From positions 383,315 through 430,502 of the forward strand of contig CAYFMS010000001.1 of the NCBI GenBank assembly GCA_964344415.1: a DNA stretch of 47,188 bases. Direction: 5' to 3'. The position numbers and the translations under genes were made by a program. Every line of letters starts with the position of its first letter. Position 1 is the first letter of the stretch. The DNA comes from an uncultured Gammaproteobacteria bacterium. GTDB taxonomy: Bacteria > Patescibacteriota > Patescibacteriia > UBA9934. Positions 5,183 through 46,967 of this stretch are shown here, piece after piece. Below the pieces are notes generated by a model. That model saw only the letters and a list, made by a program, of their open reading frames with translations, was not told the origin of the DNA and searched no databases.

Positions 5183-5215
5183 AAAAAACCCCGCAGCTAG
5201 CTTGTAGCTTTGGGG
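5183..5215 (-). terminator. Intrinsic terminator of the GC-rich lipoprotein gene
   Basis: On the minus strand the sequence reads CCCCAAAGCTA-caag-TAGCTGCGGGG (stem with a 2-nt internal mismatch) followed by TTTTTTG. It lies 17 nt after the stop at 5232. Confidence 0.6.
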
Positions 5216-5231
5216 TCTCCGCGCATGGCGG

Positions 5232-5912
5232 CTAGATTTCGCGCAGGAATGAGAAGGTTTGACCCTTGTCATCCCATGCGCCCGAATTTTCCATGATTTC
5301 GTGCATGGCATTGCCGGTCTCGGCATCGGTCCACTGAATCATGGTTCTCACGGTCGCGAGGTCGCCGTTGTCGTCTGGGATCATGTTCTCGGTCAGTTCT
5401 GGACTGACATCGATCACGATTTCTCCTTCTTCGTGGGTGTCCACGAAGAGATTGACGTCCTCAACGATGAATACGACGAGCTCTTCGTCATGCAGTTCAC
5501 CGTCTGATGTTACGACGGTGACTAGGCCGCGCTCCTCTCGATCGATCCAGTCAGCGTCGATCGTGATGAGCATATTGTCGACGAAGTACCCTTCGCCACA
5601 GCCGCGCTCGGCCGTGAACAGAAGGGACTGCTCGGCGCCGTCCTCGCGCGCGAAGAAGTCGGACTGAATTGTCCGTGCAATCGGTTGCGAGGTGGTTTCA
5701 TACGGCCCGTCGATCCAGTTGAACTGGAAGGGGTCGCATCCGTCATCCGCATCCTGATCGACATCCGGATCCCCGCGTGGGGATTCGAAAATGATCATGG
5801 GCGGCTGATTGCCTGCATCCGGATCTTCCACATACACATAAACCGTTTCCGGTTCGGGAATGCGGCACCCGGTCGCGACGATGAGCATCGCGAAGAAAAA
5901 TCGAAAGAACAT
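5232..5912 (-). CDS. GC-rich cassette 1: acidic lipoprotein of unknown function
   Basis: 226 aa. The signal peptide with lipobox is MFFRFFFAMLIVATG|C. SD AGGAGA lies 4 nt before ATG(5912). The sampled 60-nt line 5581 is 41/60 G+C against an AT-rich backbone. The product is very D/E-rich. Confidence 0.75.
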   Translation of the reverse strand: MFFRFFFAMLIVATGCRIPEPETVYVYVEDPDAGNQPPMIIFESPRGDPDVDQDADDGCDPFQFNWIDGPYETTSQPIARTIQSDFFAREDGAEQSLLFTAERGCGEGYFVDNMLITIDADWIDREERGLVTVVTSDGELHDEELVVFIVEDVNLFVDTHEEGEIVIDVSPELTENMIPDDNGDLATVRTMIQWTDAETGNAMHEIMENSGAWDDKGQTFSFLREI

Positions 5913-5975
5913 GGTATCTCCTGAGGAGTGATCTGAGCACGATTATCATGCCCAAATATCTATCCAAGACGATTA

Positions 5976-6004
5976 TTTTTAACACAAAAACGCAGATTTG
6001 TCAA
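5976..6004 (-). promoter_or_regulatory. Sigma70-type extended -10 promoter of cassette 1
   Basis: Minus strand reads TTGACA-AATCTGCGTTTTTG-TG-T-TAAAAA: perfect -35, 17-nt spacer and a TGn extension. Its -35 overlaps back-to-back with the ppa -35 (TTTGTCAA). Confidence 0.55.
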
Positions 6005-6026
6005 TCCCATACCCTCATTCTACAAT
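5998..6026 (+). promoter_or_regulatory. Candidate ppa promoter
   Basis: TTGTCA-17 nt-TACAAT, about 75 nt upstream of ATG 6101. Confidence 0.45.
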
Positions 6027-6100
6027 GACCGTTTTTATTACACAATGACTTGATTCATTCGATAAATAGGGCTAATATACAGGCATTCATAAACAAAAAT

Positions 6101-6631
6101 ATGGCTTTCAATTCATGGCATGACATTACACCAGGAGAAAATGCTCCAGAAATCGTAACAGGAATTATCGAAATTCCTCACGGGTCCAAGGCAAAATTCG
6201 AATTAGACAAAGAAACGGGCATGATTATGCTTGATCGTGTTTTGCATTCACCATTTAGGTATCCTGCAAATTATGGATTTATTCCGCAGACATATTGTGA
6301 TGATAAAGATCCGCTTGATGTTTTAGTTCTTTGCAGTGAAGATCTTCCACCACTTACGCGCGTTGAATCACGAGTGATTGGTGTTATTAAAATGATCGAC
6401 GGCGGGGAAGGTGATGATAAAGTTATTGCTGTTGCGGAAGGTGATCCTCGTTATGCTGATGTAAATGACATTTCTGACTTACCAGAAATTGTTCGTGGCG
6501 AAATGCGCATGTTCTTCGAGGATTATAAGAAGCTGCGGAAGAAGAAGGTTGAGGTGACGGATATGCTCGGTCGTGAAGCGGCGATTGATGTCGTGAAGGA
6601 CGCAATAGAGCTGTATAAAAAGGAGTTCTAG
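6101..6631 (+). CDS. ppa: Inorganic pyrophosphatase, family I
   Basis: Matches include IIEIPHGSKAKFELDKETGMIMLDRVL..P..YPANYGFIPQT..DDKDPLDVLVL and IGVIKMIDGGEGDDKVIAV. The ORF track starts at a TTG (6050); the first ATG at 6101 gives the canonical MAFNSWHD start. Confidence 0.93.
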   Translation: MAFNSWHDITPGENAPEIVTGIIEIPHGSKAKFELDKETGMIMLDRVLHSPFRYPANYGFIPQTYCDDKDPLDVLVLCSEDLPPLTRVESRVIGVIKMIDGGEGDDKVIAVAEGDPRYADVNDISDLPEIVRGEMRMFFEDYKKLRKKKVEVTDMLGREAAIDVVKDAIELYKKEF

Positions 6632-6634
6632 ATT

Positions 6635-6643
6635 TGTGGATAA
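6635..6643 (+). promoter_or_regulatory. Perfect DnaA-box 9-mer (TGTGGATAA) upstream of the DUF378 gene
   Basis: TGTGGATAA followed by TTAGCG, the same extension seen at 37484 (TGTGGATAAGTTTAGCG). Confidence 0.4.
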
Positions 6644-6700
6644 TTAGCGAATTTTGGAGTCTGAAGAGGTATACTGTTTGTATAATTCTTAAGAATTTAT

Positions 6701-6910
6701 ATGAAGCATCATAGTCCTTTACATAAGGTTGCGTGGATCCTCGTCGTTGTGGGAGCACTCAACTGGGGTCTTGTTGGCGTTACTGCCAATGACTGGGATC
6801 TTGTGACTGCTCTATTCGGGGGCGTGCCTTGGCTTCGCGAGCTTGTATTCATCCTTGTGGGTGTTTCTGGTCTTGTGCTGCTTATGGGCATGGCTCAGAA
6901 GAGCAAGTAA
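6701..6910 (+). CDS. DUF378 family small membrane protein
   Basis: 69 aa. The pattern LHKVAWILVVVGALNWGLVGV...DLV..LFG......VFILVGVSGL is typical of DUF378. TATAAT at 6681-6686. Confidence 0.8.
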   Translation: MKHHSPLHKVAWILVVVGALNWGLVGVTANDWDLVTALFGGVPWLRELVFILVGVSGLVLLMGMAQKSK

Positions 6911-6914
6911 TTTT

Positions 6915-6955
6915 AAACAAAAACACTCTCATTGTATCGAGGGTGTTTTTGTTTT
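6915..6955 (+). terminator. Intrinsic terminator after the DUF378 gene
   Basis: AAACAAAAACACTCTC-attgtatc-GAGGGTGTTTTTGTTT. Confidence 0.8.
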
Positions 6956-6966
6956 GTCGCTTGTGA
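6952..6966 (+). repeat. Post-terminator box TTTTGTCGCTTGTGA (copy 1 of 3)
   Basis: Identical 15-mers lie at 46964-46978 (+) and 11543-11557 (reverse complement). In each case the box is fused to the T-run of an intrinsic terminator. Confidence 0.7.
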
Positions 6967-7160
6967 ATCAGCGCTTTTCCGGCTCAGATCTGCGCTACGG
7001 GGCGCCGCACCTTTCAGTGCGCCTTACTACGTGTGCTCGATCTTCACCGAAATAGCATCTCATTCACTGCGCGACCAATATTTACCCAATATCCTTCATT
7101 TCCGAACCTGCCGCCACCTGCGAGACTGTCACACTGCATGCGGCAGGAGCGAGGAATTGC

Positions 7161-7229
7161 AAAACAGCCGATAGGAATGAACAACTATTCTGTATTAAGA
7201 AAAATAAAGACATTCCTATCGGCTGTTTT
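7161..7229. repeat. 19-bp perfect inverted repeat with a 31-nt AT-rich loop
   Basis: AAAACAGCCGATAGGAATG (7161-7179) pairs with CATTCCTATCGGCTGTTTT (7211-7229). Confidence 0.8.
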
Positions 7230-7275
7230 GCCCGAGCGATGACGCTCTATGCATGTGACAAAGCGAGCACTGGCG

Positions 7276-7338
7276 GCGTTCTTTTGCTTACTTTTCTTTA
7301 AAGAAAAGTAAGAAGAAAATAATGAGAGATCCCTGCCT
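7276..7338 (+). repeat. Dispersed ~62-nt repeat module containing a 26-nt perfect palindrome
   Basis: GCGTTCTTTTGCTTACTTTTCTTTAAAGAAAAGTAAGAAGAAAA is identical over 44 nt to the reverse complement of 47145-47188, then continues ..GAGATCCCTGCCT. The palindrome CTTACTTTTCTTTAAAGAAAAGTAAG lies at 7287-7312. Confidence 0.85.
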
Positions 7339-12874: not shown

Positions 12875-12903
12875 TTGACATTTGATGCATTTTATCCTAC
12901 CAT
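12875..12903 (+). promoter_or_regulatory. Candidate promoter for tRNA-Gln
   Basis: TTGACA-17 nt-TACCAT, about 118 nt upstream of the tRNA. It overlaps the truB start region on the other strand. Confidence 0.35.
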
Positions 12904-16930: not shown

Positions 16931-17433
16931 TGGCCGCCAGCACCGCCACTCTGTGGTCTCGCTGGACGGCCCGTATATGTGCTGGTTGTCAATTGAAGCT
17001 TCGCTGTAATCTACGGTTACACGCCTGAGGTTGGCAAGGGTTTTCGACGCACATGGACAAAGCCCATGGCACGAGGTACCTTCTGCGGCGTATAGCGAAC
17101 AGATTACGAGTACGAAAGCTGCAGCATTCTTGATTGCTCGTCAAGAATAGATCTGCGGCTTCCGACGCAAACGAGGCTTTCTCCACGACGCAAACGGGTT
17201 TGACATTCCCGGATGCTGGAACGGGCGGCGACGGGGAGTCCGAGACATCTCTGACCAATTGGCCGAAGGCATCTGGATCTGACGTTGGAGTTCGCCAGTT
17301 GGACACTCCCGAGGAATGTTATCCCCGACGGAGCTTACCCCACCCGCTCCCAAGTGGAACACGAATGATCTCTCCTTCTATTATCAGTGCAGAAGTGCAC
17401 AGATAAAAACATCATAAAAAACACATAAAAAAT

Positions 17434-19944: not shown

Positions 19945-20019
19945 GGGATAGGGTGTAGGGGGTAGGGTTGCCGTTACAGATTTACAGATGGTACGGATAT
20001 ACGGGATCCATCGCCAAGC

Positions 20020-20044
20020 GTCATTCCGGCCTCCGAGCCGGAAT
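20020..20044 (+). repeat. Dispersed hairpin module GTCATTCCGG...
   Basis: GTCATTCCGGC-ctccga-GCCGGAATC. The 10-mer GTCATTCCGG recurs as its reverse complement at 7372-7381. Confidence 0.6.
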
Positions 20045-20102
20045 CCAGTGGAGTAGAACATGGCACGTATACAAAAATTGGTCCGTACGGACGAAAAAGT
20101 GT

Positions 20103-20152
20103 CAAAGAAAAATCCCCGCCTCACGTAGCCGTTGTGGCTTTGTGAAGCGGGG
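20103..20152 (-). terminator. Intrinsic terminator of GC-rich cassette 2a
   Basis: Minus strand reads CCCCGCTTCAC-16-nt loop-GTGAGGCGGGG (11 bp including one G-U) followed by ATTTTTCTTTG. Confidence 0.65.
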
Positions 20153-20169
20153 TCGATCCTGCGTGAGGC

Positions 20170-21138
20170 CTAGGGCGTCGCGCAGGTTTCGAATTGTACG
20201 TTCTGGAACTCGGCGCACATGGCGCCTTCCAGTTCGGCGACCCTGTCGAACAGGGACATGCCACCCCAGCTTGCGCCGAGATGGTAGCCGTAGTCCGACG
20301 TGATTTGACCCAGGATCATCTCCTGGACGCCCATCACGCCGACCCAGTCGGTCCCCTCGATGCCGTGAAGATCGTTCTCGAGCTCGTTCACCGAGCTCTC
20401 GATTCCACGTTCGATGCACCATTGCTCGTTCACGACATTTCCGTGCACGAGGCATGGGATGTCGTTCTCGACGCGAGTGATCCTCACATCGAGATCGAAG
20501 GTGTCGACGGACTGGTCGAGCACCGAAATCCGGTTGGTTTCGATCTTGTCCTGCAGCGACCAGAGGTCGGTGCCGGGATCGACGTGGAGCTCGTACCCGC
20601 TTGCGAGCGTACTTGCGTCGCTCGCTGCGATCGAACTCGACGGTGTACGCATCCGCGCGACCGTCGTGTTGAGCGCATTTGCGTTCGCTTCGAGGTCCCA
20701 GATGTCGACGCTCTGGTCGAGCGTTGCGATCCGGTTGGTTTCGACCTGCGCTTCGAGTTCCCAAACGCGCGCCTCGAGCTGACCAACCTCACCTTGGAGG
20801 ATGTTGATCGTGCTCTGTCGGGCCGGGCCCATCGACGTCTGTACGGTGGTGAAGACCTGGCGTTCCAGCTCCTCAATCCGCCCCTTGGCGACTACCAATG
20901 CAGCGCGATGCTGCATGACGGTGGTCTCGAGGCCACGCGCATACATTGTGAGCGATTCGAAATCACTCACGAGTGCGTCGTGGCGGCAGTCCCGCCACAC
21001 ATCGGTCCCTGCGGTCAAATGACCGCATTGGTCACCGCCCGCGTGTGCGGCAGTGGAACACATCGCCGCGCCGCAAAGCAGTACGACGATCACGATTCCG
21101 GCCATGCGGGCCAGGAGTCGGGTTGGGTAAATGGGCAT
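20170..21138 (-). CDS. GC-rich cassette 2a: exported Cys-loop / coiled-coil repeat protein, unknown function
   Basis: GGAGG lies 4 nt before ATG 21138. The signal peptide is MPIYPTRLLARMAGIVIVVLLCGAAMCSTAAHA. A C-x12-C loop (CGHLTAGTDVWRDC) is followed by heptad-like sequence with a 67-codon internal duplication (ETNRIATLDQSVDIWDLE / ETNRISVLDQSVDTFDLD). Sampled lines are 53-63% G+C. Confidence 0.7.
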   Translation of the reverse strand: MPIYPTRLLARMAGIVIVVLLCGAAMCSTAAHAGGDQCGHLTAGTDVWRDCRHDALVSDFESLTMYARGLETTVMQHRAALVVAKGRIEELERQVFTTVQTSMGPARQSTINILQGEVGQLEARVWELEAQVETNRIATLDQSVDIWDLEANANALNTTVARMRTPSSSIAASDASTLASGYELHVDPGTDLWSLQDKIETNRISVLDQSVDTFDLDVRITRVENDIPCLVHGNVVNEQWCIERGIESSVNELENDLHGIEGTDWVGVMGVQEMILGQITSDYGYHLGASWGGMSLFDRVAELEGAMCAEFQNVQFETCATP

Positions 21139-21200
21139 GTATCCTCCGAATGGCATTTTCAGCCAAAGTGCACGGAAATCTTGATGAAATCCGAGGGAAT

Positions 21201-21229
21201 AATGTACCAAAAAATAGCTCTTTTGTCAA
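21201..21229 (-). promoter_or_regulatory. Extended -10 promoter of cassette 2a
   Basis: Minus strand reads TTGACA-AAAGAGCTATTTTT-TG-G-TACATT. Confidence 0.55.
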
Positions 21230-21293
21230 GGTAAAATGCTATTTTTTTAGCCAAAACAAGCCAAAATAATTAAGTCCGACTTAAATTCTGAAA

Positions 21294-21333
21294 ATAAAAA
21301 TCCGCCCGTCACACTGTTGGCGATCGGGGCGGG
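21294..21333 (-). terminator. Intrinsic terminator of GC-rich cassette 2b
   Basis: Minus strand reads CCGCCC-loop-GGGCGG followed by ATTTTTATTTT. Confidence 0.6.
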
Positions 21334-21353
21334 TTGTCGTAGTTGTGTCTTGG

Positions 21354-22118
21354 CTAGGGTTCCGCGATCAGGGTCGGATACGTATACGGATCCTGACCAG
21401 AACTGGACCTCACGAGATCCGTACTGATCGTCTGAAACAATCCATCCTTAGCAATTCCTCCGTTTTTGAAGTTGCTCGAGGTGTAGATGTACTGCGTTTG
21501 GAAGTTCGCAGGAGTTGCCAACGTAGTTACGAAATCGCCGATCACAGCAACATCCATCGAATGGTTCTCCATGCCCGTGAAAACGCTGCCGGTAGCGGTA
21601 AGGACGAAGTCCCTGTCACCAGATCCATTCAGGAGCCCGACATCGAGCGGACCCATGCTCAGCGCGGCTGGATCGCCGACATCCGTCAAACGGACCAGGC
21701 GGACATTCACGAGATAGACATCGTATAGCGGGTCGACGGTGTCATTGATCGTGATCGGGAATCCGTGGAAAAAGGTCAGATCTTCGGTCCAGATCCTGCC
21801 CGTCCAGAGGACGATGTCATTCTCTGCTCCCGCATGCGGTTTAACCACAGATTTCTCATATCCCTCCAATTTCGTGGAGGTGATGTCGATTACATGATGT
21901 GGATCGACCTGCTGCGCATACAAATCGTCGACGTCCGCTTCGAGAGCGTCAACGCGATCTTGCAGTAGTGAACCGCTCGAGAGAAGGAAGAGAATTTGGC
22001 AATTCTGCCAGTCCTCACCTCCGCTCGTGTGCTGATCGCAGGGGGCCGCTTCCGCATAAGATGCGGGGATGATGAGCGCGGCGACGATCGCTACGAAGAG
22101 AAGAATAAGTTGCTTCAT
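21354..22118 (-). CDS. GC-rich cassette 2b: exported Cys-loop / coiled-coil protein with C-terminal beta-rich domain, paralogous N-terminus to 2a
   Basis: Start preferred at ATG 22118, giving MKQLILLFVAIVAALIIPASYAEA (signal peptide). The C-x12-C loop CDQHTSGGEDWQNC has the same spacing and the same T, G, D/E, W and D/N positions as in 2a. Confidence 0.7.
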   Translation of the reverse strand: MKQLILLFVAIVAALIIPASYAEAAPCDQHTSGGEDWQNCQILFLLSSGSLLQDRVDALEADVDDLYAQQVDPHHVIDITSTKLEGYEKSVVKPHAGAENDIVLWTGRIWTEDLTFFHGFPITINDTVDPLYDVYLVNVRLVRLTDVGDPAALSMGPLDVGLLNGSGDRDFVLTATGSVFTGMENHSMDVAVIGDFVTTLATPANFQTQYIYTSSNFKNGGIAKDGLFQTISTDLVRSSSGQDPYTYPTLIAEP

Positions 22119-22167
22119 TGCTTTTTCCTTTGAAGGATGTTGAACCTGCATGACCACAGGTGGCAGG

Positions 22168-22196
22168 AGAGTATCAGCTTTTACAACAAATGTCAA
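22168..22196 (-). promoter_or_regulatory. Extended -10 promoter of cassette 2b
   Basis: Minus strand reads TTGACA-TTTGTTGTAAAAGC-TG-A-TACTCT. Confidence 0.5.
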
Positions 22197-25642: not shown

Positions 25643-27238
25643 ATGCCAAAAGACGCAAATAGACGACCAAGGCCTGCAGTGCTTATTATCATTGATGGAT
25701 TTGGTATAGCGCCTGACGGGGAGGGAAATGCGGTTACAAAGGCAAAAATGCCAACATTTGAAATGCTGAAACAGCGTTATCCGGTTGTTACATTGAAGGC
25801 CTCGGGCGAAACAGTAGGACTCATGTGGGGTGAGATGGGGAATTCCGAGGTTGGACATCTGACCATTGGTGCAGGTCGCGTTCATTTCCAGACATTGCCA
25901 AAAATTGAGAAAGCAATTGCGGATAAAAGTTTCTTTGAAAATGAAAAATTGCTAGCTGCGGCTGAACATGTGAAAAAGACAAAGGGCACTGTCCACATCT
26001 TTGGATTAATGTCATCTGGAAAGGTGCATGCATACAATAAGCATGCCTATGCTCTCCTTGAATTTTGTAAGAAGCAGAAAATAAAAGACGTGGCGATTCA
26101 CGCTGTTTTGGACGGGCGTGACACCCTTTATAATTCAGGGGCAGAGTTTATCGATGAATTGCAGGCGAAAATGAAGGAGCTGAAAATTGGGCATCTCGCA
26201 ACACTCTCGGGTCGATTTTATAGCATGGACCGCGACAATCGTTGGGACAGAACAGAGAAGGCGTATCGAGCGATGGTGCTCGGCGAATCAGATGAACAGT
26301 TCGACGATCCTATGGATGCCATCAGGGCATCATATGCGAAAGAAGTTTTTGATGAAGAATTTGTCCCAACCGTGATTACGAAGCGAGGAAAGCCTGTTGC
26401 GACCGTTCAGGATGGTGATGCAGTTGTTTTCTTCAATTTCAGACCAGACCGAGCTCGGCAGATTTCGAAAGCTTTTGTTCTCGATGATTTTAATAAATTC
26501 GAACGTGAAAAGATCAAGAATCTCTATTTTGCGAGCATGACAGAATATGAAGATGATTTGCCAACCGAGGTCATGTTTCCAACCGAAGAATTACAAAATA
26601 CGCTTGCGGAGGTTTTGTCAGATGCTGGACTTGTTCAATTGCATATTGCCGAAACAGAAAAATACGCTCATGTTACATTCTTTTTGAATGGCTCGCATGA
26701 AGACCCGTTCCCGCATGAAGATCGCGTGATTATTCCTTCACCGAAAGTCCCTTCATATGATGAAGCGCCTGATATGGCTACTCGGGAATTGACGGATAGG
26801 GTTTTGAAAGAGGTAAAGACAGATAATTACGATGTTATTATCTTGAATTTTGCCAGTCCAGACATGGTGGCGCATACGGGTAATTTTGATGCGACGGTGC
26901 AGGCACATGAAACGGTGGATGAATGTGTCGGAAAGATTGTAAAAGCTGTTTTAGCGCAAGACGGAGTTGTTTTAATTACAGCTGATCATGGAAATTCTGA
27001 AGAGGTGAAGAATATACAAACAGGTGAGATGGATAAAGAACATAGTACAAACCCAGTTCCGTTTTTTATCATTGCGAATCATTTGGAGGGTCAGCCAGGT
27101 ATTGCTGGAGACGTTCCTAGTGGTGATTTATCACTTATGCCTCCGATTGGGATGCTTGCTGATGTCGCGCCGACACTGCTTAAGATGCTTGGAGTTGATC
27201 AACCTAGCGACATGACAGGCACTCCACTTATTGATTAA
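25643..27238 (+). CDS. gpmI: 2,3-bisphosphoglycerate-independent phosphoglycerate mutase
   Basis: VLIIIDGFG, NSEVGHLTIGAGR, LDGRD, PDMVAHTG and TADHGN. The first ATG consistent with homologues is 25643 (MPKDANRRPRPAVL); the track's earlier start adds a non-homologous extension. Confidence 0.95.
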   Translation: MPKDANRRPRPAVLIIIDGFGIAPDGEGNAVTKAKMPTFEMLKQRYPVVTLKASGETVGLMWGEMGNSEVGHLTIGAGRVHFQTLPKIEKAIADKSFFENEKLLAAAEHVKKTKGTVHIFGLMSSGKVHAYNKHAYALLEFCKKQKIKDVAIHAVLDGRDTLYNSGAEFIDELQAKMKELKIGHLATLSGRFYSMDRDNRWDRTEKAYRAMVLGESDEQFDDPMDAIRASYAKEVFDEEFVPTVITKRGKPVATVQDGDAVVFFNFRPDRARQISKAFVLDDFNKFEREKIKNLYFASMTEYEDDLPTEVMFPTEELQNTLAEVLSDAGLVQLHIAETEKYAHVTFFLNGSHEDPFPHEDRVIIPSPKVPSYDEAPDMATRELTDRVLKEVKTDNYDVIILNFASPDMVAHTGNFDATVQAHETVDECVGKIVKAVLAQDGVVLITADHGNSEEVKNIQTGEMDKEHSTNPVPFFIIANHLEGQPGIAGDVPSGDLSLMPPIGMLADVAPTLLKMLGVDQPSDMTGTPLID

Positions 27239-27348
27239 TCCACAATCAAAGTCGGACATGAAATGTGGATAAGTTTACGAAACTGACTGATAATTGGTTG
27301 TTTTTTAATTTTCATCCACAGATAAAGTCCGACATTGTCTGTGGATAG
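27236..27348. promoter_or_regulatory. Cluster of four DnaA-box-like 9-mers with an AT-rich stretch, in a convergent intergenic region
   Basis: TAATCCACA (27236-27244), TGTGGATAA (27264-27272, perfect), TCATCCACA (27312-27320) and TGTGGATAG (27340-27348). The AT-rich GATAATTGGTTGTTTTTTAATTTTC lies between them. Confidence 0.5.
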
Positions 27349-27360
27349 ATTTTAGGTAAG

Positions 27361-27391
27361 AAAAAGCCCCTACCGCGAAAGCAGTAGGGGC
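27361..27391 (-). terminator. Intrinsic terminator of GC-rich cassette 3
   Basis: Minus strand reads GCCCCTAC-tgctttcgcg-GTAGGGGC followed by TTTTT. Confidence 0.8.
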
Positions 27392-27422
27392 GTAGGATCA
27401 CATCAGCCGTGTGCTGAGGTGA

Positions 27423-28940
27423 TTAGTTGTCGTAGCTGACGACGATCGCAGCACGATTGTTGTCCCAGTCGGTGGGGTATCCGTCGTCGTCGTAGTCGGT
27501 GAACGACTGTCCGTCGTAGGATTCCGACTCGGCGGTTCCGAGGTTGGTTTCCACGTTGACGTCCCAGATACCGAACAGTTCTTCCTCGACTTCGATGTCG
27601 ATGAAGTCACTGTTGCCATTCTCGTCGACGATGTGATGAGCTTGACCGTTGTCATCGGTAGCAAATCCATTGAACCAGAATTCGTCGTCGATGTCTCCGC
27701 TCAGGGTGACCTCGACGATGTCTCCGGATTCCAGATTCGTCATGTTGACGAGGAAAACCTCGTCGTTCGAGATGACGCCATCAGCTGCCAGCTGTCCACG
27801 CCCGTACCAATAGTTGATTTCGGGCGAGTCGGTCCGGTCGGACCGGGCCCCGAACAGCTCCAGCTTGTCGAGGTCTTCCTCGATCTCGATGGTGAAGGTG
27901 ATCTGGGTCAAGTGATCGCAGGCGCCGGACTCATCGACTTTGTCGTCGCAGTCGTTGTCGTTGCCGTCACAGAACTCGTCTTCGTTGGGGTTGACGTAGA
28001 ACTCGTCGTCGTCGCAGTCGAGATCGTCGCCGTCCTCGTAGTCGACTTCGTCGGTCTGGCATTCCTCGCGGAGGGTGCCGTCGTCGTCCTCATCACCGAA
28101 CCCGTCTGCATCATCGTCGTCGATGCACAGGTACAGGCACGACTCTTGATCTGCATCGTCTTCTCCGCTGCAGTCGTTGTCGATGTTGTCGTCGCAGTTG
28201 CCCTCGTCGATCTCTTCGATCTCGGCGGGGCTGACGTCATCATCATCGTCATCGCAGTCGGTGTTGTCCTCGACTTCGTCTGCTTCGCATTCGGAGCGTT
28301 GGATGGCAGCTTCGCCATCATCTCCGAACCCGTCGCCGTCGAAATCGGGATAGCAGTTGACCATGGTCACGTCGCCGCAGTTCTCGAAGACGTCGAAGTC
28401 TTCGTCATCGCAGTCGGTATTGTTCCAGCTCCCTTCGATGAGAGTGCAGGTGAGCTCGCTGACCGCGAGTCCAGAATCATTCGAATCGCCATACCCATCG
28501 CCATCAGTGTCTCTGAAGCAGAGGGTGTAGCAGATGTTCTGGACGTCAAACTCTTCGTCATTGCAGTCGGAGTTGTTCAGGCTGTGCCAGCCGTCACTCA
28601 CCAGTGCATCGCAGTCGTCGCTCGGAATCTCGATCCCTGGATCGAGCGGATCACCGAATCCATCGCCGTCGCTGTCGATGTAGCACATGACATCTTCCAC
28701 AACGCTGCAGTTCTCGAAGACATAGAAGTCTTCGTCATCGCAGTCGGTGTTGTTCAGGCTGTACGTACCAGCGTCCACCAGTACGTCACAGTCGTCGCTT
28801 GGAATCTCGATGCCTGGATCGAGCGGGTCACCATAGGTATCGCCGTCGCCGTCGATGTAGCACATGACGTCGGGATTGCTCTGACCACCTCCGAAGAAGT
28901 AGATCCAGAGCATGAACAGGAATTGTTTGAATGCGGTCAT
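27423..28940 (-). CDS. GC-rich cassette 3: exported protein with five Cys/Asp-rich 'putative metal-binding motif' (MopE-like) repeats, poly-acidic linker and C-terminal beta-rich domain
   Basis: GGAGG lies 4 nt before ATG 28940 (MTAFKQFLFMLWIYFFGGG). Repeats have the form C(Y/F).D.DGDG(Y/F)GD.......C......(W/Y)...N.DCDD.D..V; the first two are near-identical. A later motif is CDGNDNDCDDKVDE. Asp is almost always GAC. Sampled line 27961 is 34/60 G+C. Confidence 0.75.
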   Translation of the reverse strand: MTAFKQFLFMLWIYFFGGGQSNPDVMCYIDGDGDTYGDPLDPGIEIPSDDCDVLVDAGTYSLNNTDCDDEDFYVFENCSVVEDVMCYIDSDGDGFGDPLDPGIEIPSDDCDALVSDGWHSLNNSDCNDEEFDVQNICYTLCFRDTDGDGYGDSNDSGLAVSELTCTLIEGSWNNTDCDDEDFDVFENCGDVTMVNCYPDFDGDGFGDDGEAAIQRSECEADEVEDNTDCDDDDDDVSPAEIEEIDEGNCDDNIDNDCSGEDDADQESCLYLCIDDDDADGFGDEDDDGTLREECQTDEVDYEDGDDLDCDDDEFYVNPNEDEFCDGNDNDCDDKVDESGACDHLTQITFTIEIEEDLDKLELFGARSDRTDSPEINYWYGRGQLAADGVISNDEVFLVNMTNLESGDIVEVTLSGDIDDEFWFNGFATDDNGQAHHIVDENGNSDFIDIEVEEELFGIWDVNVETNLGTAESESYDGQSFTDYDDDGYPTDWDNNRAAIVVSYDN

Positions 28941-29019
28941 GCCGCCTCCATTGTCTCGTGTTGAAAATGTACGTAAACACCCGTTAGACGGGAGTCCACG
29001 AAATAACTCGTGGTCGCAA

Positions 29020-29048
29020 AAAGTAGCACAAAATGCCTCATTTGTCAA
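29020..29048 (-). promoter_or_regulatory. Extended -10 promoter of cassette 3
   Basis: Minus strand reads TTGACA-AATGAGGCATTTTG-TG-C-TACTTT. Confidence 0.55.
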
Positions 29049-29109
29049 TGCTGAGACTGGAAAAAATGATCATTATGATATAGTTCAGACAACCTTTTTT
29101 TGGAAAAAT

Positions 29110-29943
29110 ATGAAGAAAATGCAAGAAATTGGCCAAGATAAGCCACATTCTAAGGTTATCACAACTTTGGTGGTGATTATCCTATTCTTACTTATAGGAA
29201 TAATAGTGCTACTTTCATTGCTATTTTGGAATGATGTGACAGATTTCGCTGATCAGATTCCAGAGGATGAAATTTCAACTGAAATGACCGATGATTCACA
29301 AGATGAAGATGTCCTAGATATTGAAGAAAATGACGAATCATCTGAAATAAGTGCATTACCATATCTCGAAAACACATCACGAAATATCGATTTTTCCTTT
29401 GAATCGACGTATTTGAATCAAATTCGTAATACGAATACCTATCCATATTGCCAGAAAATTGCTGGACATGATGGTGTTCCAGTGTCCGAACTGAATGAAG
29501 AAATTATTTCTCAAATGCTCCCAGAATTAGATCCTACGAATCTGACGGCAGTCACGCACCAGATTTTTACGATTCTTGATGCGAATAATCTAAATATCCA
29601 TCAAAAATGCCAGGGAACTGGATGGCAGATTCTAACGGCAGGAAATATAAATACGGGGCAATTGATGCTTATGCAAATCAATTCAGATGCTTTGACTCCA
29701 GGACAATTTCAATTGAATCAATTTGAAACGGTATCAAATGTGATTGATATGACATATGACATTATTGATTTCGGAGACTTTGTAGGGCTTTGGCATGGAT
29801 ATGGCGATGCTGGAATTGTTAGCTGGGAGGTGCGTCGTATTGATTTTGAATCTATGACACTTGATTTATATGAGTCATGTCAAGCCGAGGCATTTATGGA
29901 TCCGGGTCAGTTGACATGTGAACGGGAATATATTTCAGGGTAA
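29110..29943 (+). CDS. Hypothetical membrane-anchored protein
   Basis: Start preferred at ATG 29110 (MKKMQEIGQ...). The ORF-track upstream extension overlaps the cassette-3 promoter and start. TM VITTLVVIILFLLIGIIVLLSLLFW, then an acidic linker and a globular domain with no motif I recognise. Confidence 0.65.
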   Translation: MKKMQEIGQDKPHSKVITTLVVIILFLLIGIIVLLSLLFWNDVTDFADQIPEDEISTEMTDDSQDEDVLDIEENDESSEISALPYLENTSRNIDFSFESTYLNQIRNTNTYPYCQKIAGHDGVPVSELNEEIISQMLPELDPTNLTAVTHQIFTILDANNLNIHQKCQGTGWQILTAGNINTGQLMLMQINSDALTPGQFQLNQFETVSNVIDMTYDIIDFGDFVGLWHGYGDAGIVSWEVRRIDFESMTLDLYESCQAEAFMDPGQLTCEREYISG

Positions 29944-32879: not shown

Positions 32880-34010
32880 ATGTTTTCACTTCGCGGGAGA
32901 AATGGATTAGCTCGTCATGGTGTGCTTTCGACGAATCATGGTGATATTGAGACGCCGTTTTTTATGCCGATTGCTACGCGCGGGGCGGTAAAAACATTGT
33001 CATCAATTGACATGAAGTCACTTGGGGCGCAAATTCTTCTTTCAAATACCTATCATTTACTTCTCCGTCCCGGCATGGATGACATGCGTAAACTCGGTGG
33101 GCTTCATGAATTCATGAAATGGGATGGTCCAATATTGACGGATAGTGGAGGCTATCAGGTTTTCAGTTTGTCAAAAATGAATGATATTGATGATGATGGA
33201 GTTGCATTTCAGTCGCATATTGATGGTAAACGTATTCGTTTAACGCCGGAAGGGTCAATGGCAATGCAGTCGGCAATTGGCGCGGATATGATTATGCAAT
33301 TCGATGATGTAGCTCCGGCGGACTCGACGAAGCCTCGTTTTGAAGAAGCGATGGAGCGGTCTATCGCCTGGGCGAAGCGTTGTAAAGATTCTTATGATGA
33401 GTCACAGAAATTATTCGGTATTGTGCAGGGCGGAACGCATGAAGATTTGCGCGAGCGCAGCGCTCATGGATTAATGGAAATCGGTTTTGATGGATATGCA
33501 ATTGGTGGGTTGTCTGTTGGTGAGCCTAGGCCTGCGTCATTCCGTATCACAAAACAGATGACAGATATCCTTCCAGAAGATAAGCCTCGGTATTTTATGG
33601 GCGGGGGTATGCCGGAAGAAATTGTTTACTATGTTTCTATTGGCGTGGATATGTTTGATTGCGTTTTGCCATCGCGCAATGCGCGGCATGGGACTGTTTT
33701 TACGTGGAAAGGGGATCCAGCTGAATGTGTAAGAACAGCATTTGAGAGAGCGCAAAATGGTATGACGGATGTCATGATTGCGGACGCACTTTATCATCGA
33801 ATTCAAATTAATAGGGAGCCATTCACAACTGATAAAGATCCTCTGGATGCTTATGCTGATTTGCTTGAATCAAATATGTATTCTCGCGCATATGTGAGGC
33901 ATCTTTTTAAAACAAATGAGATTCTCGGCATGCGTCTTGCGACCATGCAAAATATTCGTTTTTACTTGCGACTGATGCAAGAGCTTCGGAATGTGATTGG
34001 AAAAAAATAA
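32880..34010 (+). CDS. tgt: tRNA-guanine transglycosylase (queuine tRNA-ribosyltransferase) lacking the CxCxxC zinc site
   Basis: TPFFMPIATRGAVK, LSNTYHL, LTDSGGYQVFSL, GIVQGG, GGLSVGE and VDMFDCVLPSRNARHG. The zinc motif region reads LDAYADLLESNMYSRAY. Confidence 0.93.
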   Translation: MFSLRGRNGLARHGVLSTNHGDIETPFFMPIATRGAVKTLSSIDMKSLGAQILLSNTYHLLLRPGMDDMRKLGGLHEFMKWDGPILTDSGGYQVFSLSKMNDIDDDGVAFQSHIDGKRIRLTPEGSMAMQSAIGADMIMQFDDVAPADSTKPRFEEAMERSIAWAKRCKDSYDESQKLFGIVQGGTHEDLRERSAHGLMEIGFDGYAIGGLSVGEPRPASFRITKQMTDILPEDKPRYFMGGGMPEEIVYYVSIGVDMFDCVLPSRNARHGTVFTWKGDPAECVRTAFERAQNGMTDVMIADALYHRIQINREPFTTDKDPLDAYADLLESNMYSRAYVRHLFKTNEILGMRLATMQNIRFYLRLMQELRNVIGKK

Positions 34011-34026
34011 TCGCCGGCGGGCGATT
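34001..34026 (-). terminator. Hairpin terminator serving the minus-strand mini-ORF (and abutting the tgt stop)
   Basis: Minus strand reads AATCGCC-cgcc-GGCGATT followed by ATTTTTTT. Confidence 0.6.
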
Positions 34027-34031
34027 CGAGT

Positions 34032-34148
34032 TTACAGAATGATGAACGTGATACACATAGCGAAAAGCGCGATCACGCAGAAGGCGATAAATACATCTTT
34101 GAAGGATGTATCGCTATTTCTGCGCGGACTCCGACGTCTACGAGCCAT
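34032..34148 (-). CDS. Unlisted 38-codon ORF: Arg-rich N terminus plus one TM helix (MARRRRSPRRNSDTSFKDVFIAFCVIALFAMCITFIIL)
   Basis: Below the ORF-track length cutoff. AAGGAGG lies 4 nt before the ATG, a terminator lies immediately downstream, and TTGACA-N14-TG-N-GAATGT lies upstream (34168-34196). Confidence 0.5.
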   Translation of the reverse strand: MARRRRSPRRNSDTSFKDVFIAFCVIALFAMCITFIIL

Positions 34149-34167
34149 GTTTCCTCCTTGTGAATGT

Positions 34168-34196
34168 ACATTCTCATGGTGCGCATGGAGTGTCAA
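34168..34196 (-). promoter_or_regulatory. Candidate extended -10 promoter of the mini-ORF
   Basis: Minus strand reads TTGACA-CTCCATGCGCACCA-TG-A-GAATGT. The geometry matches the five cassette promoters but the hexamer is weak. Confidence 0.35.
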
Positions 34197-34261: not shown

Positions 34262-34449
34262 TCGAAATCCTGAGCCTGTCGAAGGATCTTTCTAAATTGC
34301 GACTAGACTCTCTTCAATCTCATGAATCTCTTCTATCTCCTTTGCGTATCTCATTTCTCTAACCTTACTAACTTTTCTAACTTCCCTCATCCCCGCACCT
34401 ACAAGCTACCAGCTAAAACCTACCCCCTATATTCCATCTGCGCTATAAT
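34262..34449 (+). repeat. Mosaic of dispersed intergenic repeat modules ending in an outward-facing -10 element
   Basis: It contains TCGAAATCC, CCTGAGCCTGTCGAAGGATCTT (copy at 47064-47085), CAATCTCATGAATCTCTTCTATCTCCT and ACCTTACTAACTTTTCTAACTT (copies in reverse complement at 11474-11528), CCTACCCCCTA (reverse complement at about 19957-19967), and TCTGCGCTATAAT (copy at 25621-25633). Confidence 0.8.
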
Positions 34450-44234: not shown

Positions 44235-45053
44235 TTCAAATGCCTTCAATACATTCAGTAGAAGGTAAGAAACGGTGAGTGGGCCAATCCCACCCGGTAC
44301 AGGACTTGCAAATGCCGCCTTTTGCTTTGCTTGCGTCAAGATATCTCCACGAACTTTATTTCCTGTCCTATTTGTACCGACATCAATCAAGATTGATCCC
44401 TCTTTTACCATATCCTCTTTGATAAATCCCAATCTTCCAACTGCGACAATCAGAATATCGGCTGCACGGGTTTTGCTGGCGAGAGCTGATGATTCAGGTG
44501 AAAGATATTGCGCGGTTATATTTGACTCTTCTAGTAATTTGCTAATGGGGCGTGAAAAAATCTCATTATTGCTAATGATGACGGCATGCTTTCCGCGTAG
44601 TGGCTGTCTAGATGCTTGAATGAGTCGCATGATAGCGAGTGCAACTGGTGGTACGAGACTCGCTTCGCTGCGGTCGAGCTTATCAAGATTTTCTTCTTTA
44701 AATCCGTCTACATCTTTCAATGGGTCGATCGTGTCGATGATTATGTTTTCGTCAATTCCATCTGGAAGGGGAAGTTGAACGAGAATACCGTGGATGTCGG
44801 CACGATTGTTAAATTCTTTCACTTTACTTCTAATATCTTCGGTCTTTGCTTTCGCGTCGAATTCAGCTTTTTCAACAAAGATTCCCGCGCGTTTTGCTGC
44901 TGACTCTTTTAGGCTTACATAGAGATGCGATGCCTTATCATCGCCAGCTAAAATAACGCCGAGGCCAAGTGGCTGATCGAGTTTTTCGATACGCGCTCTT
45001 ACCTTTTCTTCAATGTTTTTTGCGAGGATTCGCCCGCGAAGCCATTCATTCAT
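44208..45053 (-). CDS. folD: Bifunctional methylenetetrahydrofolate dehydrogenase/cyclohydrolase
   Basis: LGVILAGDDKASHLYV..K...A...GI, GILVQLPLP, V.VVGR and PGGIGPLTVSYLL. Its 3' end overlaps the convergent permease by 27 nt. Confidence 0.93.
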   Translation of the reverse strand: MNEWLRGRILAKNIEEKVRARIEKLDQPLGLGVILAGDDKASHLYVSLKESAAKRAGIFVEKAEFDAKAKTEDIRSKVKEFNNRADIHGILVQLPLPDGIDENIIIDTIDPLKDVDGFKEENLDKLDRSEASLVPPVALAIMRLIQASRQPLRGKHAVIISNNEIFSRPISKLLEESNITAQYLSPESSALASKTRAADILIVAVGRLGFIKEDMVKEGSILIDVGTNRTGNKVRGDILTQAKQKAAFASPVPGGIGPLTVSYLLLNVLKAFELQRKADQS

Positions 45054-45062
45054 ATCGCCGTG

Positions 45063-45091
45063 AGTATAGCTATTTCATGCTTGAAAGGCAA
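45063..45091 (-). promoter_or_regulatory. Candidate folD promoter, -10 placed 9 nt before ATG
   Basis: Minus strand reads TTGCCT-17 nt-TATACT-cacggcgat-ATG with no SD. Confidence 0.5.
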
Positions 45092-45135
45092 GTAAGGCTT
45101 CGTTTTCTGGGTGCTAATCTTGGCCAAATATTCAT

Positions 45136-45157
45136 TTAAGTGTCGATCGGCACTTAA
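45136..45157. promoter_or_regulatory. 22-nt near-perfect palindrome in the folD / cassette-4 divergent region (candidate operator)
   Basis: TTAAGTGTCGATCGGCACTTAA has 20 of 22 positions self-complementary. Confidence 0.4.
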
Positions 45158-45226
45158 GTGAAGAATTATATTTTCTTTAGCGAAATGTAGCTGCAGTACA
45201 TAATATTGCTAATATTAGCTAAATAC

Positions 45227-45255
45227 TTGACAAAAAGGTCATTTTTTGCTAGTTT
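45227..45255 (+). promoter_or_regulatory. Extended -10 promoter of cassette 4
   Basis: TTGACA-AAAAGGTCATTTTT-TG-C-TAGTTT. Confidence 0.55.
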
Positions 45256-45299
45256 TTGAAGTCGCATTTTGTGTAAAATGCGCGTACTTTGGAGGTAAA

Positions 45300-46901
45300 A
45301 TGAGAGAAAAACAAGGGGTGGCGACGCCAAAATGGCCGAGCTATCCTGTCCGAACCAAGCAGTGTTGGTTTGAGGAGGACAATAAGTCCACCTGGCCGGT
45401 GCTGTACACACATGTGAGCGCTGACCTGGATGCTCTTCTTGCGATTGCGGCCTATTGTTACTACAAGGGGCTCGTGATCGACGAAAACTGCAAGATCAGG
45501 TTCGTCGAGGCCAATTGGAGCGGTGAGATGGATTTGGCGAGGGGAGACCGCGCCTTTGACATCAAAGCACCCGTTCACTTTGACGGGATCACAGATCGTG
45601 ACCGCGATCAGTGGCCGAAAGATGAATCCCGCCGATATCATCGCGGATGGAAGGGGAAAACCGAGCAGGACGGCGCGACATTGTCCGTTTTCTCACTCGT
45701 CATGAAGCGATGCGCTCCACGTGAGCATGTCAACTACTTCAAGCAACTCATGAGCATTGTGGACAATCACGATGCTTATGGGTCAGCGATGAAGGGCTTC
45801 AAGGAGCGAGTTCATCCGGACTTGCTGAACATGCTCAGGCAAATCGGTGTCGTGGAGGTTTATCGCGCTCTGCAAGGCGCGCGGAAGCTCGACATGTTCA
45901 GCAAATTCGATTTGCCCAAATGTCGGACTAAGGAACACAGGTCAGACTATAAAATGGTGGCATTATTTGTTGCCATTTTCCGAGGCATGGCCGCGCAAGC
46001 AGATCGAGCAACCTATGCGGACTATGTTCCACTGAAGGCTGCTCTCGAGAATCGCTTTGATCCCGAGGACCGCGAATATTACGATGTGCTGATGAAGCAT
46101 GTCGATGTGGTGCTCGGCAAGGAGGATCCTCATGTCATTGACGGACTGTTCCGCAATCCTGAAGGAAAATTTCTGAGCGCTGACCTGCGCAAAGAAATCT
46201 TCATGACCGTCAGGCAGGCGAGTCTACCACTCTTCGTAAAGGGCGCGAAGACGGCTGCCGAGAATGGCTGGATCGATTTCATTCCTGGCGAGGATGCAAC
46301 GGAGCGTTGCGAGTATCTGTGTGACATGATTGCACAGGGATTCGTGAACAATCTGTCAGCCTTGCGGGAAGCTGAACAGTTCGTACGGGAAGGGCTCGAC
46401 GCCTATCACGCGAGTGATGGAGTCGGATATCGGCTCACGACATTCCATCAGTTGCAATTTGCGAATGATGAGCAGAATGAGGATCCGGTGGTGGCGGTGC
46501 TGAATGTGCCGAAATCAGAGGACAATTTCAAGCTGCATGAAGTCCTGTGGAAACATGGGATGAAGGTCATCATCCGCATTGATCGTAAAAATGTCGCCAT
46601 CATCAGACGCCCTGACAGCAGGGATTTCTGGATGGATGACGAGCGGCTTACGTCTTTGATCGAACGCTTGGATGAAACCTGGGATCGGGATGGAATCCTT
46701 AGCAAGGGCGGTAAGCTCAACTGGTTTGCTCATGAGGGTGGCTGGTTGTTAGCATCGGGTACGAAGAAGGCTCCCGCCAAGAAGCTCACCATTATCCGAT
46801 ACGACCGTATCGTGGAAGTGGTGTGCAAAATCCTGCGTGATCCCAAGGCTGCCAATCAGGAAAAGCGGCAGCATCACAGTAGTAGTGAACGACATTCCTA
46901 G
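45300..46901 (+). CDS. GC-rich cassette 4: 533-aa cytoplasmic orphan protein; weak DHH/DHHA1-phosphoesterase-like motifs
   Basis: GGAGG lies 4 nt before ATG 45300 (the track starts at TTG 45246). There is no signal peptide. LYTHVSADLDAL (H-x3-D-x-D), VDNHDA and FAHEGGWLLASG loosely resemble DHH motifs I, III and the DHHA1 GGGH region. Sampled line 45541 is 34/60 G+C. Confidence 0.7.
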   Translation: MREKQGVATPKWPSYPVRTKQCWFEEDNKSTWPVLYTHVSADLDALLAIAAYCYYKGLVIDENCKIRFVEANWSGEMDLARGDRAFDIKAPVHFDGITDRDRDQWPKDESRRYHRGWKGKTEQDGATLSVFSLVMKRCAPREHVNYFKQLMSIVDNHDAYGSAMKGFKERVHPDLLNMLRQIGVVEVYRALQGARKLDMFSKFDLPKCRTKEHRSDYKMVALFVAIFRGMAAQADRATYADYVPLKAALENRFDPEDREYYDVLMKHVDVVLGKEDPHVIDGLFRNPEGKFLSADLRKEIFMTVRQASLPLFVKGAKTAAENGWIDFIPGEDATERCEYLCDMIAQGFVNNLSALREAEQFVREGLDAYHASDGVGYRLTTFHQLQFANDEQNEDPVVAVLNVPKSEDNFKLHEVLWKHGMKVIIRIDRKNVAIIRRPDSRDFWMDDERLTSLIERLDETWDRDGILSKGGKLNWFAHEGGWLLASGTKKAPAKKLTIIRYDRIVEVVCKILRDPKAANQEKRQHHSSSERHS

Positions 46902-46928
46902 AATCGTGTGAACGGCACAATTCTAATA

Positions 46929-46967
46929 ACCCGCCAAGGCTGGAACACAGCAATGGCGGGTTTTTTT
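46929..46967 (+). terminator. Intrinsic terminator of cassette 4
   Basis: CCCGCCA-17-nt loop-TGGCGGG followed by TTTTTTT. Confidence 0.75.

Follow-up and report, generated by a model that had tools for sequence, protein, structure and literature searches.

GC-rich single-gene units with their own expression signals between the housekeeping genes of an Uhrbacteria-related genome

The units and their products

The window described here, i.e. the whole stretch of 47,188 nucleotides that was analysed, belongs to a metagenome contig of 768,188 bp (ENA ERZ930061; run ERR2281801 of project PRJEB17505), and with its flanks the portion of the genome under study comes to ~62.5 kb. Its closest species representatives are metagenome-assembled genomes of Candidatus Uhrbacteria/Patescibacteria, with UvrC identities of at most 67%, and we compared it with 160 Uhrbacteria-related loci (with labels such as L009). 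The backbone of housekeeping genes has a G+C content (GC) of ~0.43, is mostly co-oriented on the plus strand and shows a positive GC skew. Set into it, with ppa, SIMPL, uvrA, uvrC, gpmI, nth, folD and glyA as neighbours, are five GC-rich open reading frames (ORFs), here called c5, c20, c21, c27 and c45, and a 38-codon ORF, the mini unit, which is less clearly a member of the same set and a weaker one. The cassettes share one layout: a near-consensus sigma-70 promoter (TTGACA, a 17-nt T-rich spacer and a TGn-extended -10 box), a leader of 38-73 nt, the ORF and a strong intrinsic terminator, so that a single gene is enclosed by a promoter and a terminator of its own. The features are listed below, together with the Shine-Dalgarno (SD) sequences and the GC at third codon positions (GC3).

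5183..6004, minus strand: unit c5; promoter 5976-6004 (TTGACA, 17 nt with TG, TAAAAA), leader ~57 nt, AGGAGA at 5917-5922
5232-5912, minus strand: c5 ORF, 226 aa; lipobox IVATGC; Asp+Glu 22.6%; GC3 0.69
5189-5215, minus strand: stem of the c5 terminator hairpin, U-run to 5183
20108..21229, minus strand: unit c20; promoter 21201-21229, leader ~56 nt, GGAGG at 21143-21147
20170-21138, minus strand: c20 ORF, 322 aa; signal peptide, Cys-loop and repeated ETNR..LDQSVD motif; GC3 0.77
20114-20152, minus strand: c20 terminator hairpin, U-run to 20108
21296..22196, minus strand: unit c21; promoter 22168-22196, leader ~43 nt, weak AAGGA
21354-22118, minus strand: c21 ORF, 254 aa; signal peptide and Cys-loop like the c20 N-terminus; GC3 0.64
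21302-21332, minus strand: c21 terminator hairpin, U-run to 21296
27361..29048, minus strand: unit c27; promoter 29020-29048, leader ~73 nt, GGAGG at 28945-28949
27423-28940, minus strand: c27 ORF, 505 aa; MopE-type Cys/Asp repeats; Asp+Glu 31%; 24 Cys; GC3 0.75
27366-27391, minus strand: c27 terminator hairpin, U-run to 27361
34001..34196, minus strand: mini unit; TTGACA at 34191-34196, poor -10 box GAATGT, AGGAGG at 34153-34158
34032-34148, minus strand: mini-ORF, 38 codons; Arg-rich N-terminus and one hydrophobic helix; GC3 0.54; absent from the public annotation
34009-34026, minus strand: mini unit terminator hairpin, U-run to 34001
45227..46967, plus strand: unit c45; promoter 45227-45255, leader ~38 nt, GGAGG at 45291-45295
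45300-46901, plus strand: c45 ORF, 533 aa; no signal peptide; ORFan; GC3 0.61
46930-46960, plus strand: c45 terminator hairpin, U-run to 46967

A preliminary description of this DNA, made by eye from the sequence, had claimed that the five ORFs are compositionally distinct, that the shift begins and ends at their borders with AT-rich flanks, and that the acidic ones among them write Asp as GAC where the backbone does not. All three claims were borne out. In 500-nt windows GC peaks at 0.53-0.62 over the five ORFs against ~0.43 elsewhere, and GC inside them is 0.52-0.61 compared with 0.31-0.43 in the 150 nt upstream of each. The per-ORF GC3 values lie 4.7-7.9 standard deviations above those of 47 backbone genes (mean 0.386, sd 0.049, maximum 0.51). 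For GAC, the cassettes reach a relative codon usage of 1.25, compared with 0.46 for the backbone, and relative codon usage of the two classes correlates with r = -0.24. The cassette ORFs show the GC1 > GC2 < GC3 periodicity, GC1 and GC2 being the GC at first and second codon positions, and both C and G are raised at their third positions. Translational selection for C-ending codons was considered as a cause and ruled out, since C3 and G3 both rise with a C/G split that follows the strand, and since the ribosomal protein genes rplJ, rplL and rplU (GC3 0.33-0.42, no SD) are neither GC3-rich nor SD-led.

Logan contigs from runs ERR2281800 and ERR2281801 agreed with the window at 100% identity over all cassette junctions, and a MEGAHIT contig from run ERR2281802 did so at 99.87%; the c5 junctions are backed by L005 and L006 and those of c45 by L003. 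With every junction covered by contigs of three runs and two assemblers, at 99.87-100% identity, the cassettes are not chimeras, a concern that had been raised at the outset.

Four of the five proteins (all but c45) carry a signal peptide or a lipobox, and the predicted exported products are a lipoprotein (c5), two Cys-loop proteins (c20 and c21) and an acidic Cys-repeat protein of the MopE type (c27), plausibly variable surface or host-contact proteins. The c45 protein is predicted to be cytoplasmic. All five fall in singleton clusters, and none is encoded in the 160 related loci. A single family or donor for the set was ruled out, the proteins being mutually unrelated save for a weak N-terminal similarity between c20 and c21. 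No significant family was found for c5, c20, c21 or c45 in Pfam, PHROGs, NCBIfam or PADLOC; c20 has one homologue, P0003 on L089, among 1.84e9 representatives, and for c5 and c21 none came up in these libraries, in the related loci or in phage and virus collections. Among 5.8e9 proteins c45 matched nothing but itself, a sequence search of the PDB gave it no relative, and its AlphaFold2 model, built without an alignment, was unusable (pLDDT 35.6). In the case of c27, we found 983 MopE-type homologues carrying PF11617, with aligning repeats and E-values down to 1.5e-39, and its direct Pfam match to that family remained under the curated cut-off (23 vs 27 bits). The family is widespread in bacteria outside the candidate phyla radiation (CPR) and common in Myxococcota, c27 being 30-40% identical to its members; both homologues whose context was examined, P0005 (the second-best) and P0010, lie in non-CPR genomes.

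These homologues also establish that the minus-strand frame of c27, as first proposed, is the correct one. The public gene call at this place is an antisense ORF (27636-28964, plus strand), whose 442-aa product NCBI, ENA and Logan all carry, and the protein collection lacks the real one of 505 aa. GC-rich DNA keeps several frames open, with antisense ORFs of 346 and 443 aa. For the annotated 334-aa gene downstream of c27, the most likely start is close to 29110 (MKKMQEIG..., then a transmembrane helix); its 5' end as annotated, in the region 28939-29110, reads the leader and promoter of c27 in reverse complement. A 100-aa ORF on the minus strand that overlaps the end of c45 (46792-47094) is probably spurious.

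Expression signals in the window and across the lineage

The pattern TTGACA-N14-TGN-TANNNT has four exact matches, every one ahead of a GC-rich ORF, where 0.05 would be expected, and none of 100 shuffles gave four. The shared promoter that the preliminary description saw in all five cassettes therefore holds exactly in four; at c5 the spacing is 17 nt and the -10 box, TAAAAA, departs from TAnnnT. The same geometry had been ascribed to the mini-ORF and does not hold there, as its would-be -10 box is GAATGT and its GC3 is also just 0.54 (z = 3.1). Two further readings of the signals were sustained: GGAGG or GGAGA stands 4 nt ahead of the ATG in c5, c20, c27, c45 and the mini-ORF, c21 having a weak AAGGA in its place, and a hairpin with a U-run ends 6/6 units, with stems of -9.6 to -28.4 kcal/mol. 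From these signals the cassettes would be transcribed and translated as the layout predicts.

The backbone is organized differently. It had been described as mostly lacking SD sequences, and in fact no canonical SD was found at any backbone gene of the analysed stretch. In many of these genes, e.g. uvrC, gpmI, tgt, folD, dnaB and an amino-acid permease gene, a -10 box stands 6-13 nt ahead of the ATG and the -35 box is weak. The backbone is further marked by predicted translational coupling; the internal genes of its operons overlap or abut their upstream neighbours and are likewise without an SD. The lack of an SD together with a -10 box so close to the ATG suggests that the backbone transcripts are leaderless. 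The TG dinucleotide is not confined to the cassettes, as had been supposed, since TGgTAGTAT precedes the ATG of uvrC by 9 nt. At 12875, the promoter of tRNA-Gln has the same -35 box and T-rich spacer and matches the pattern once the TG is dropped, and the promoter type TTGACAAA...ATTTTnTGnTA occurs in many Uhrbacteria, also at tRNA and other non-cassette genes. Because the type is native to the lineage, we ruled out the promoter spacer as proof of a common ancestry of the cassettes.

We also examined these signals in two sets of loci with mechanical ORF calls, set 1 comprising 33 loci and set 2, which is independent of it and comes from JGI metagenomes, 41; in both, the GC3 of each ORF was measured against the median of the conserved genes of its own locus (relative GC3). 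In set 1, GGAGG lies 3-10 nt before the start in 4-8% of ORFs with low or normal relative GC3 and in 31% of those above 0.2; the corresponding values in set 2 are 5-6 and 40%. GC-rich control pentamers showed no trend with relative GC3 in either set. Conversely, a -10 box adjoins the start in ~50% of set 2 ORFs with low or normal relative GC3 but in 11% of those above 0.2. Mean relative GC3 is ~+0.10 for SD-positive ORFs and +0.01 for the others (p = 1e-7 and 2e-7). The high-GC3 class alone has an SD peak, which lies 4-7 nt from the start. Conserved genes do not use an SD, and in 445 of them strict -10 hexamers peak 6-9 nt from the start.

When 68 loci with a backbone GC3 <0.6 were pooled (1,189 ORFs), the high-GC3 non-conserved ORFs exceeded the rest in terminators (28% vs 10%), perfect -35 promoters (17% vs 3%) and SD sequences (30% vs 7%), and these differences persist without the window (p = 3e-4 to 1.5e-9). 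These data show that the distinction between an SD-led, GC3-rich layout and a putatively leaderless one is lineage-wide and not special to the window. In addition, 55% of the high-GC3 class run antisense to the backbone around them, compared with 6% of the conserved genes. In full-grammar units GC3 is ~0.64 irrespective of that of their host. Lineage-wide, the class also differs in GC1, in GC2 (+0.047) and in amino-acid composition, with Gly, Ala, Arg and Pro up and Phe, Tyr, Met, Ile, Asn and Lys down, a shift that fits long residence in a GC-richer genome.

Within set 2, 29/37 ORFs with relative GC3 >0.2 have no homologue in any other locus. About three-quarters of the class lack a Pfam domain, and the remainder comprises enzymes of envelope sugars, pilins, one M23 peptidase and a small number of phage-like proteins. 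N-terminal hydrophobic segments are equally common, at 25%, among the high-GC3 genes and the rest; the earlier statement that the products are mostly exported agrees with the predictions for 4/5 products of the window, but export is not a property of the class. Both grammars are represented within a single Nudix-like family of the uvrC|mraZ gap. Its GC3-rich form (0.74-0.77, with GGAGG) is found at L099 1501-2235, where the copy has its own promoter and terminator, and at L041 3174-3866, and its AT-rich form, with no SD and with a -10 box by the ATG, at L108 8495-9061 and L107 164-730 and in L024, L036, L054 and L094. Our search of the literature returned no description of this split in expression grammar, nor of ribosome-binding sites (RBSs) confined to atypical genes, and the papers that it covered do not list this lineage.

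Origin of the units

Uhrbacteria share the gene order uvrB-uvrA-uvrC-mraZ-rsmH-ftsL(-gpmI), but two of its gaps differ in length among the relatives, measuring 8 bp to 6.9 kb between uvrA and uvrC and 205 bp to 7.9 kb between uvrC and mraZ. Given this wide variation, the cassettes sit in turnover hotspots, and the empty sites that the preliminary description had thought worth looking for were present, the uvrA|uvrC gap being 8 bp in L009, 15 bp in L019 and 83 bp in L014. L011 and L041 carry different ORFs in the same gap although their uvrC genes are 83% identical at the DNA level.

On balance, we think it probable that the five ORFs are real, strain-specific accessory genes forming moron-like autonomous units, and we infer that they were probably acquired horizontally from a GC-richer, SD-using gene pool. 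GC-rich SD-led genes would then be acquired or xenologous; such genes would bring or recruit a full set of signals, because they would be unable to join leaderless operons, and they would insert in either orientation into intergenic gaps between conserved housekeeping operons, which are turnover hotspots throughout the class. Acquisition is supported by the uniqueness of the proteins, the empty sites, the random orientation and the lineage-wide shift in whole-gene composition, as well as by the host-independent GC3 of ~0.64, the two-grammar Nudix-like family, the different ORFs in the L011/L041 gap and the largely non-CPR family of c27. Horizontal transfer in Patescibacteria is documented as frequent (PMC12455944).

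Several observations weigh against acquisition, at least in a simple form. One is the c20 orthologue P0003, which is syntenic in L089, where a conserved uvrB|uvrA element is followed by the cassette and then by mraZ. The promoters of c20 and P0003 are identical at 33/35 positions and their terminators are homologous, the proteins being 35% identical, and P0003 has a GC3 of 0.59 in a backbone of 0.25-0.36, the backbones of the window and L089 being 69-71% identical at the DNA level. A simple recent transfer is thereby weakened, since that model predicts drift towards the composition of the host and yet the GC3 of P0003 is still high; with a high-GC3 orthologue at hand, a mechanism that maintains cassette composition is possible. 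In the five genes of the window the compositional shift is restricted to third positions, and the third-position C/G skew follows the replication strand, as in resident genes. The cassette promoters are the lineage's own strong promoter type and not simply imported from a foreign phylum. All GGAGG-positive non-conserved ORFs taken together track host GC3, with a slope of 0.74 and a roughly constant offset of +0.11. As for donors, the c27 family is mostly non-CPR at the identities given above, c45 has no homologue and the homologue of c20 is in a relative, and no donor was identified for any cassette. The window contains no mobility gene, recombinase, tRNA target or target-site duplication. Finally, the leaderless transcription of the backbone is itself read from sequence features. 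The original proposal of horizontally acquired, autonomously expressed cassettes thus stands with respect to self-contained, monocistronic and strain-specific units, but recent transfer is called into question by the syntenic c20 orthologue with its high GC3, a finding that the preliminary description had itself named as contrary to it.

The uvrB|uvrA intergenic element (window 16970-17366; L089 5235-5426) has features of its own: 195 nt are 80% identical, compared with 69-71% in backbone coding DNA, and its minus strand holds an SD-led ORF of ~72 codons (VFHLGAGGVSSVGDNIPRECP...), with an amino-acid identity about equal to the DNA identity and a GC2 of 0.58. It had no Rfam match and folded no better than shuffles (z = -1.22), and it may be an RNA or another small cassette.

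A second explanation, which we regard as the less likely one although it accounts for several of these points, is that the genome is intrinsically two-tiered, the cassettes being long-resident, fast-evolving genes in which a high GC3 is actively maintained and in which SD and GC3 are tied together by the mode of expression. It might be upheld by selection, acting on the stability of the mRNA or on the translation of transcripts that are leadered and strongly expressed, or by GC-biased gene conversion where recombination is frequent. It is favoured by the syntenic c20 orthologue, which has kept promoter, terminator and high GC3 despite ~30% DNA divergence of the backbone, by the native promoter type, by the restriction of the window's shift to third positions with a skew that agrees with the present strand, and by the near-constant offset of GGAGG-positive ORFs from host GC3; the c20/P0003 alignment, a mosaic of conserved and unalignable blocks, also suggests recombination. 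Against it, rplJ, rplL and rplU, which are presumed to be highly expressed, show that neither translational selection nor transcription-linked repair raises GC3 in such genes. Furthermore, the high-GC3 class differs lineage-wide in GC1, GC2 and amino-acid composition, the GC3 of full-grammar units is independent of the host, and most high relative-GC3 ORFs of set 2 are without homologues in other loci. The GC3 excess of 0.2-0.4 also far exceeds the effects of gene conversion described in bacteria.

More doubtful still is the idea of fixed 'expression slots', in which conserved promoter and terminator frames at set intergenic positions would have unrelated GC-rich SD-led ORFs exchanged within them by recombination. 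This is pointed to by the 33/35 promoter identity at c20 despite the low protein identity, by an identical 41-nt terminator after three non-homologous ORFs in L011 and L041, and by the TTAAGTCSGACTTAA palindromic direct repeats around the L089 cassette. The terminator in question, AAACGGCGCGGCCCACTCGGGTCGCGCCGTGTATCTTTTT, follows GC-rich SD-led ORFs at L011 11336-11384 and L041 3101-3141 and 3923-3973, its copies being 100% and 92% identical. In the same two loci the 500 nt upstream of mraZ are 99% identical, uvrC being just 83% identical. If slots of this kind were true, the leaderless core and the SD-led accessory genes would form a functional partition of translation, e.g. for the separate control of variable surface proteins, and would be more than a trace left by horizontal transfer.

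The L089 element consists of AATTAAGTCCGACTTAAA-N8-TTTAAGTCGGACTTAATT, is palindromic and forms direct repeats of 90% identity at 3694-3744, 3917-3967 and 5003-5053; as 45-51-nt copies these bracket the c20 homologue. In the window, a palindrome TTAAGTCSGACTTAA at 21270..21284, ~40 nt upstream of the -35 box of c20, is a half-copy of this element. A further palindromic feature lies by c27:

27235-27274 and 27310-27349, plus strand: two inverted-repeat units ATCCACA..AAAGTCSGACAT..TGTGGAT, between the gpmI end and the c27 terminator

These units and the palindrome at 21.27 kb share a GTCSGAC core, and GTCSGACTT has six matches where 0.57 would be expected. No att-like site or motif is common to the cassette flanks and no cassette array was seen; the preliminary description's failure to find a recombinase or att-like boundary was repeated in our own search of the window. 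Its other suggestion, an undescribed cassette-type unit, was not demonstrated to be a mobile one, because no recombinase, shared att site or array of cassettes came to light.

Delivery by phages, with Uhrbacteria phages or mobile elements leaving single expressed genes behind as morons or prophage remnants, is in our view improbable. Such an origin would agree with the layout, in that a gene with its own promoter and terminator and a GC unlike its neighbours meets the definition of a moron (PMC3594210). ORFan status is typical of phage genes, and among 64 high-GC3 ORFs of relatives there are a few strong phage matches (phrog_2087, 1.5e-48; a virion structural protein, 7.6e-45). Yet the surroundings of the window's cassettes are free of phage genes, integrases and att sites, none of the five proteins gave a significant match in a PHROG search, c5, c21 and c45 had no tblastn match in 50,697 phage genomes from GenBank, c5 and c21 had no relative in IMG/VR, and the palindromic repeat element of L089 is likewise absent from IMG/VR. 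Phage DNA is, moreover, usually AT-richer than its host, not GC-richer. An artefact, be it a chimera of the assembly, contamination by GC-rich reads or ORFs that arose by chance in GC-rich non-coding DNA, might be feared from the metagenomic source, the open antisense frames and the wrong public call at c27, but is extremely unlikely in view of the junctions reproduced across runs and assemblers, the codon periodicity, SD spacing and promoter/terminator orientation of real genes, the many homologues of c27 and the presence of a c20 homologue in another metagenome.

Some other short elements recur in the intergenic DNA of the window and its relatives. TGTGGATAAGT, the complement of the DnaA-box consensus TTATCCACA, occurs five times against 0.65 expected (6635, 27264, 37484, 39454 on the minus strand, and 39484), with further copies past the window end (at the equivalent of ~48.9 and ~53.9 kb) as well as in L011 and L089. 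It is found in intergenic DNA close to promoters, in many cases beside short palindromes such as AGATCSGATCT, and may be a transcription-factor or DnaA site. GATCCTTCGRCAGGCTCAGGA is a 23-nt repeat, 96% identical between 34268-34290 and 47063-47085, and hairpins of the GTCATTCC/GGAATGAC type are shared among intergenic regions (window 19945-20090; L089 5600-5930). These last repeats overlap small called ORFs that are probably not genes.

Significance and comparison with known systems

The lineage-wide reach of the pattern and the persistence of high GC3 in c20 add to the interest of these units. Gene finders trained on a leaderless, AT-rich core miscall them, as the public record of c27 on the wrong strand illustrates, and in Uhrbacteria an SD combined with a GC3 excess could mark accessory or acquired genes cheaply and without recourse to homology. 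A host-attached way of life is assumed for Patescibacteria, and strain-specific ORFans that are predicted to be strongly expressed and exported are prime candidates for proteins of host contact or phage evasion. Should their composition be actively kept and not derive from a donor, the lineage would offer a natural test of the coupling between initiation mode and codon composition.

Overall, as a general class, the cassettes match the atypical (putatively transferred) genes of a leaderless-rich genome, and what is unusual about them is that they are GC-richer than their host and almost the sole users of SD sequences. Their composition and codon usage lie outside the range of the genome and their distribution is patchy, c20 with its one orthologue in L089 being the exception; signatures of mobility are missing from the window, the sole case of flanking direct repeats (45-51 nt) being the c20 copy of L089. 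In genomes of GeneMarkS-2 group C, the Pribnow box of some operon-leading genes stands ~10 nt ahead of the start and genes with a leader use an RBS, and compositionally atypical, putatively transferred genes make up ~8-9% of a typical genome and are usually AT-richer than it (PMC6028130). Uhrbacteria resemble this group in having first genes with a -10 box close to the start and a minority of atypical genes, but differ in that the atypical genes are GC-richer, that the internal genes of operons lack an SD and that the RBS is nearly confined to the atypical, non-conserved class. The leadered accessory genes have an SD peak at 4-7 nt; the conserved genes, including those internal to operons, do not use an SD.

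The c27 protein is like the MopE-related PF11617 'putative metal-binding motif' proteins in its repeats, Y-D-x-DGDG-(F/Y)-GD ... C ... DCDD-x-D ... CDG-x-DNDCDG. Unlike them, it is shorter, has an unrelated acidic C-terminal domain for which no homologue was detected, and lies in a CPR genome, its family being absent from the 160 related loci. With integron cassettes the units have in common that they are single-ORF, strain-variable and each followed by an imperfect inverted repeat. They differ from these in that every unit has its own promoter, that the units are scattered over 40 kb with no intI or integrase among the called genes, and that the 3' hairpins are GC-rich stems with a U-run, i.e. 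terminators, in which no shared attC-like core was seen by inspection, no formal attC model having been used.

The closest likeness in layout is to the morons of temperate phages, a concept reportedly associated with Juhala and Hendrix. Like morons, each unit is a single gene, often an ORFan, with its own promoter and terminator and a GC unlike its neighbours, placed between conserved genes and missing there in relatives (PMC3594210). Unlike morons, the units reside on the chromosome of a cell, with housekeeping genes around them (ppa, uvrA/uvrC, gpmI/nth, folD/glyA) and outside any phage context, and they are GC-richer than their host and marked by a switch from a leaderless backbone to SD-led initiation.

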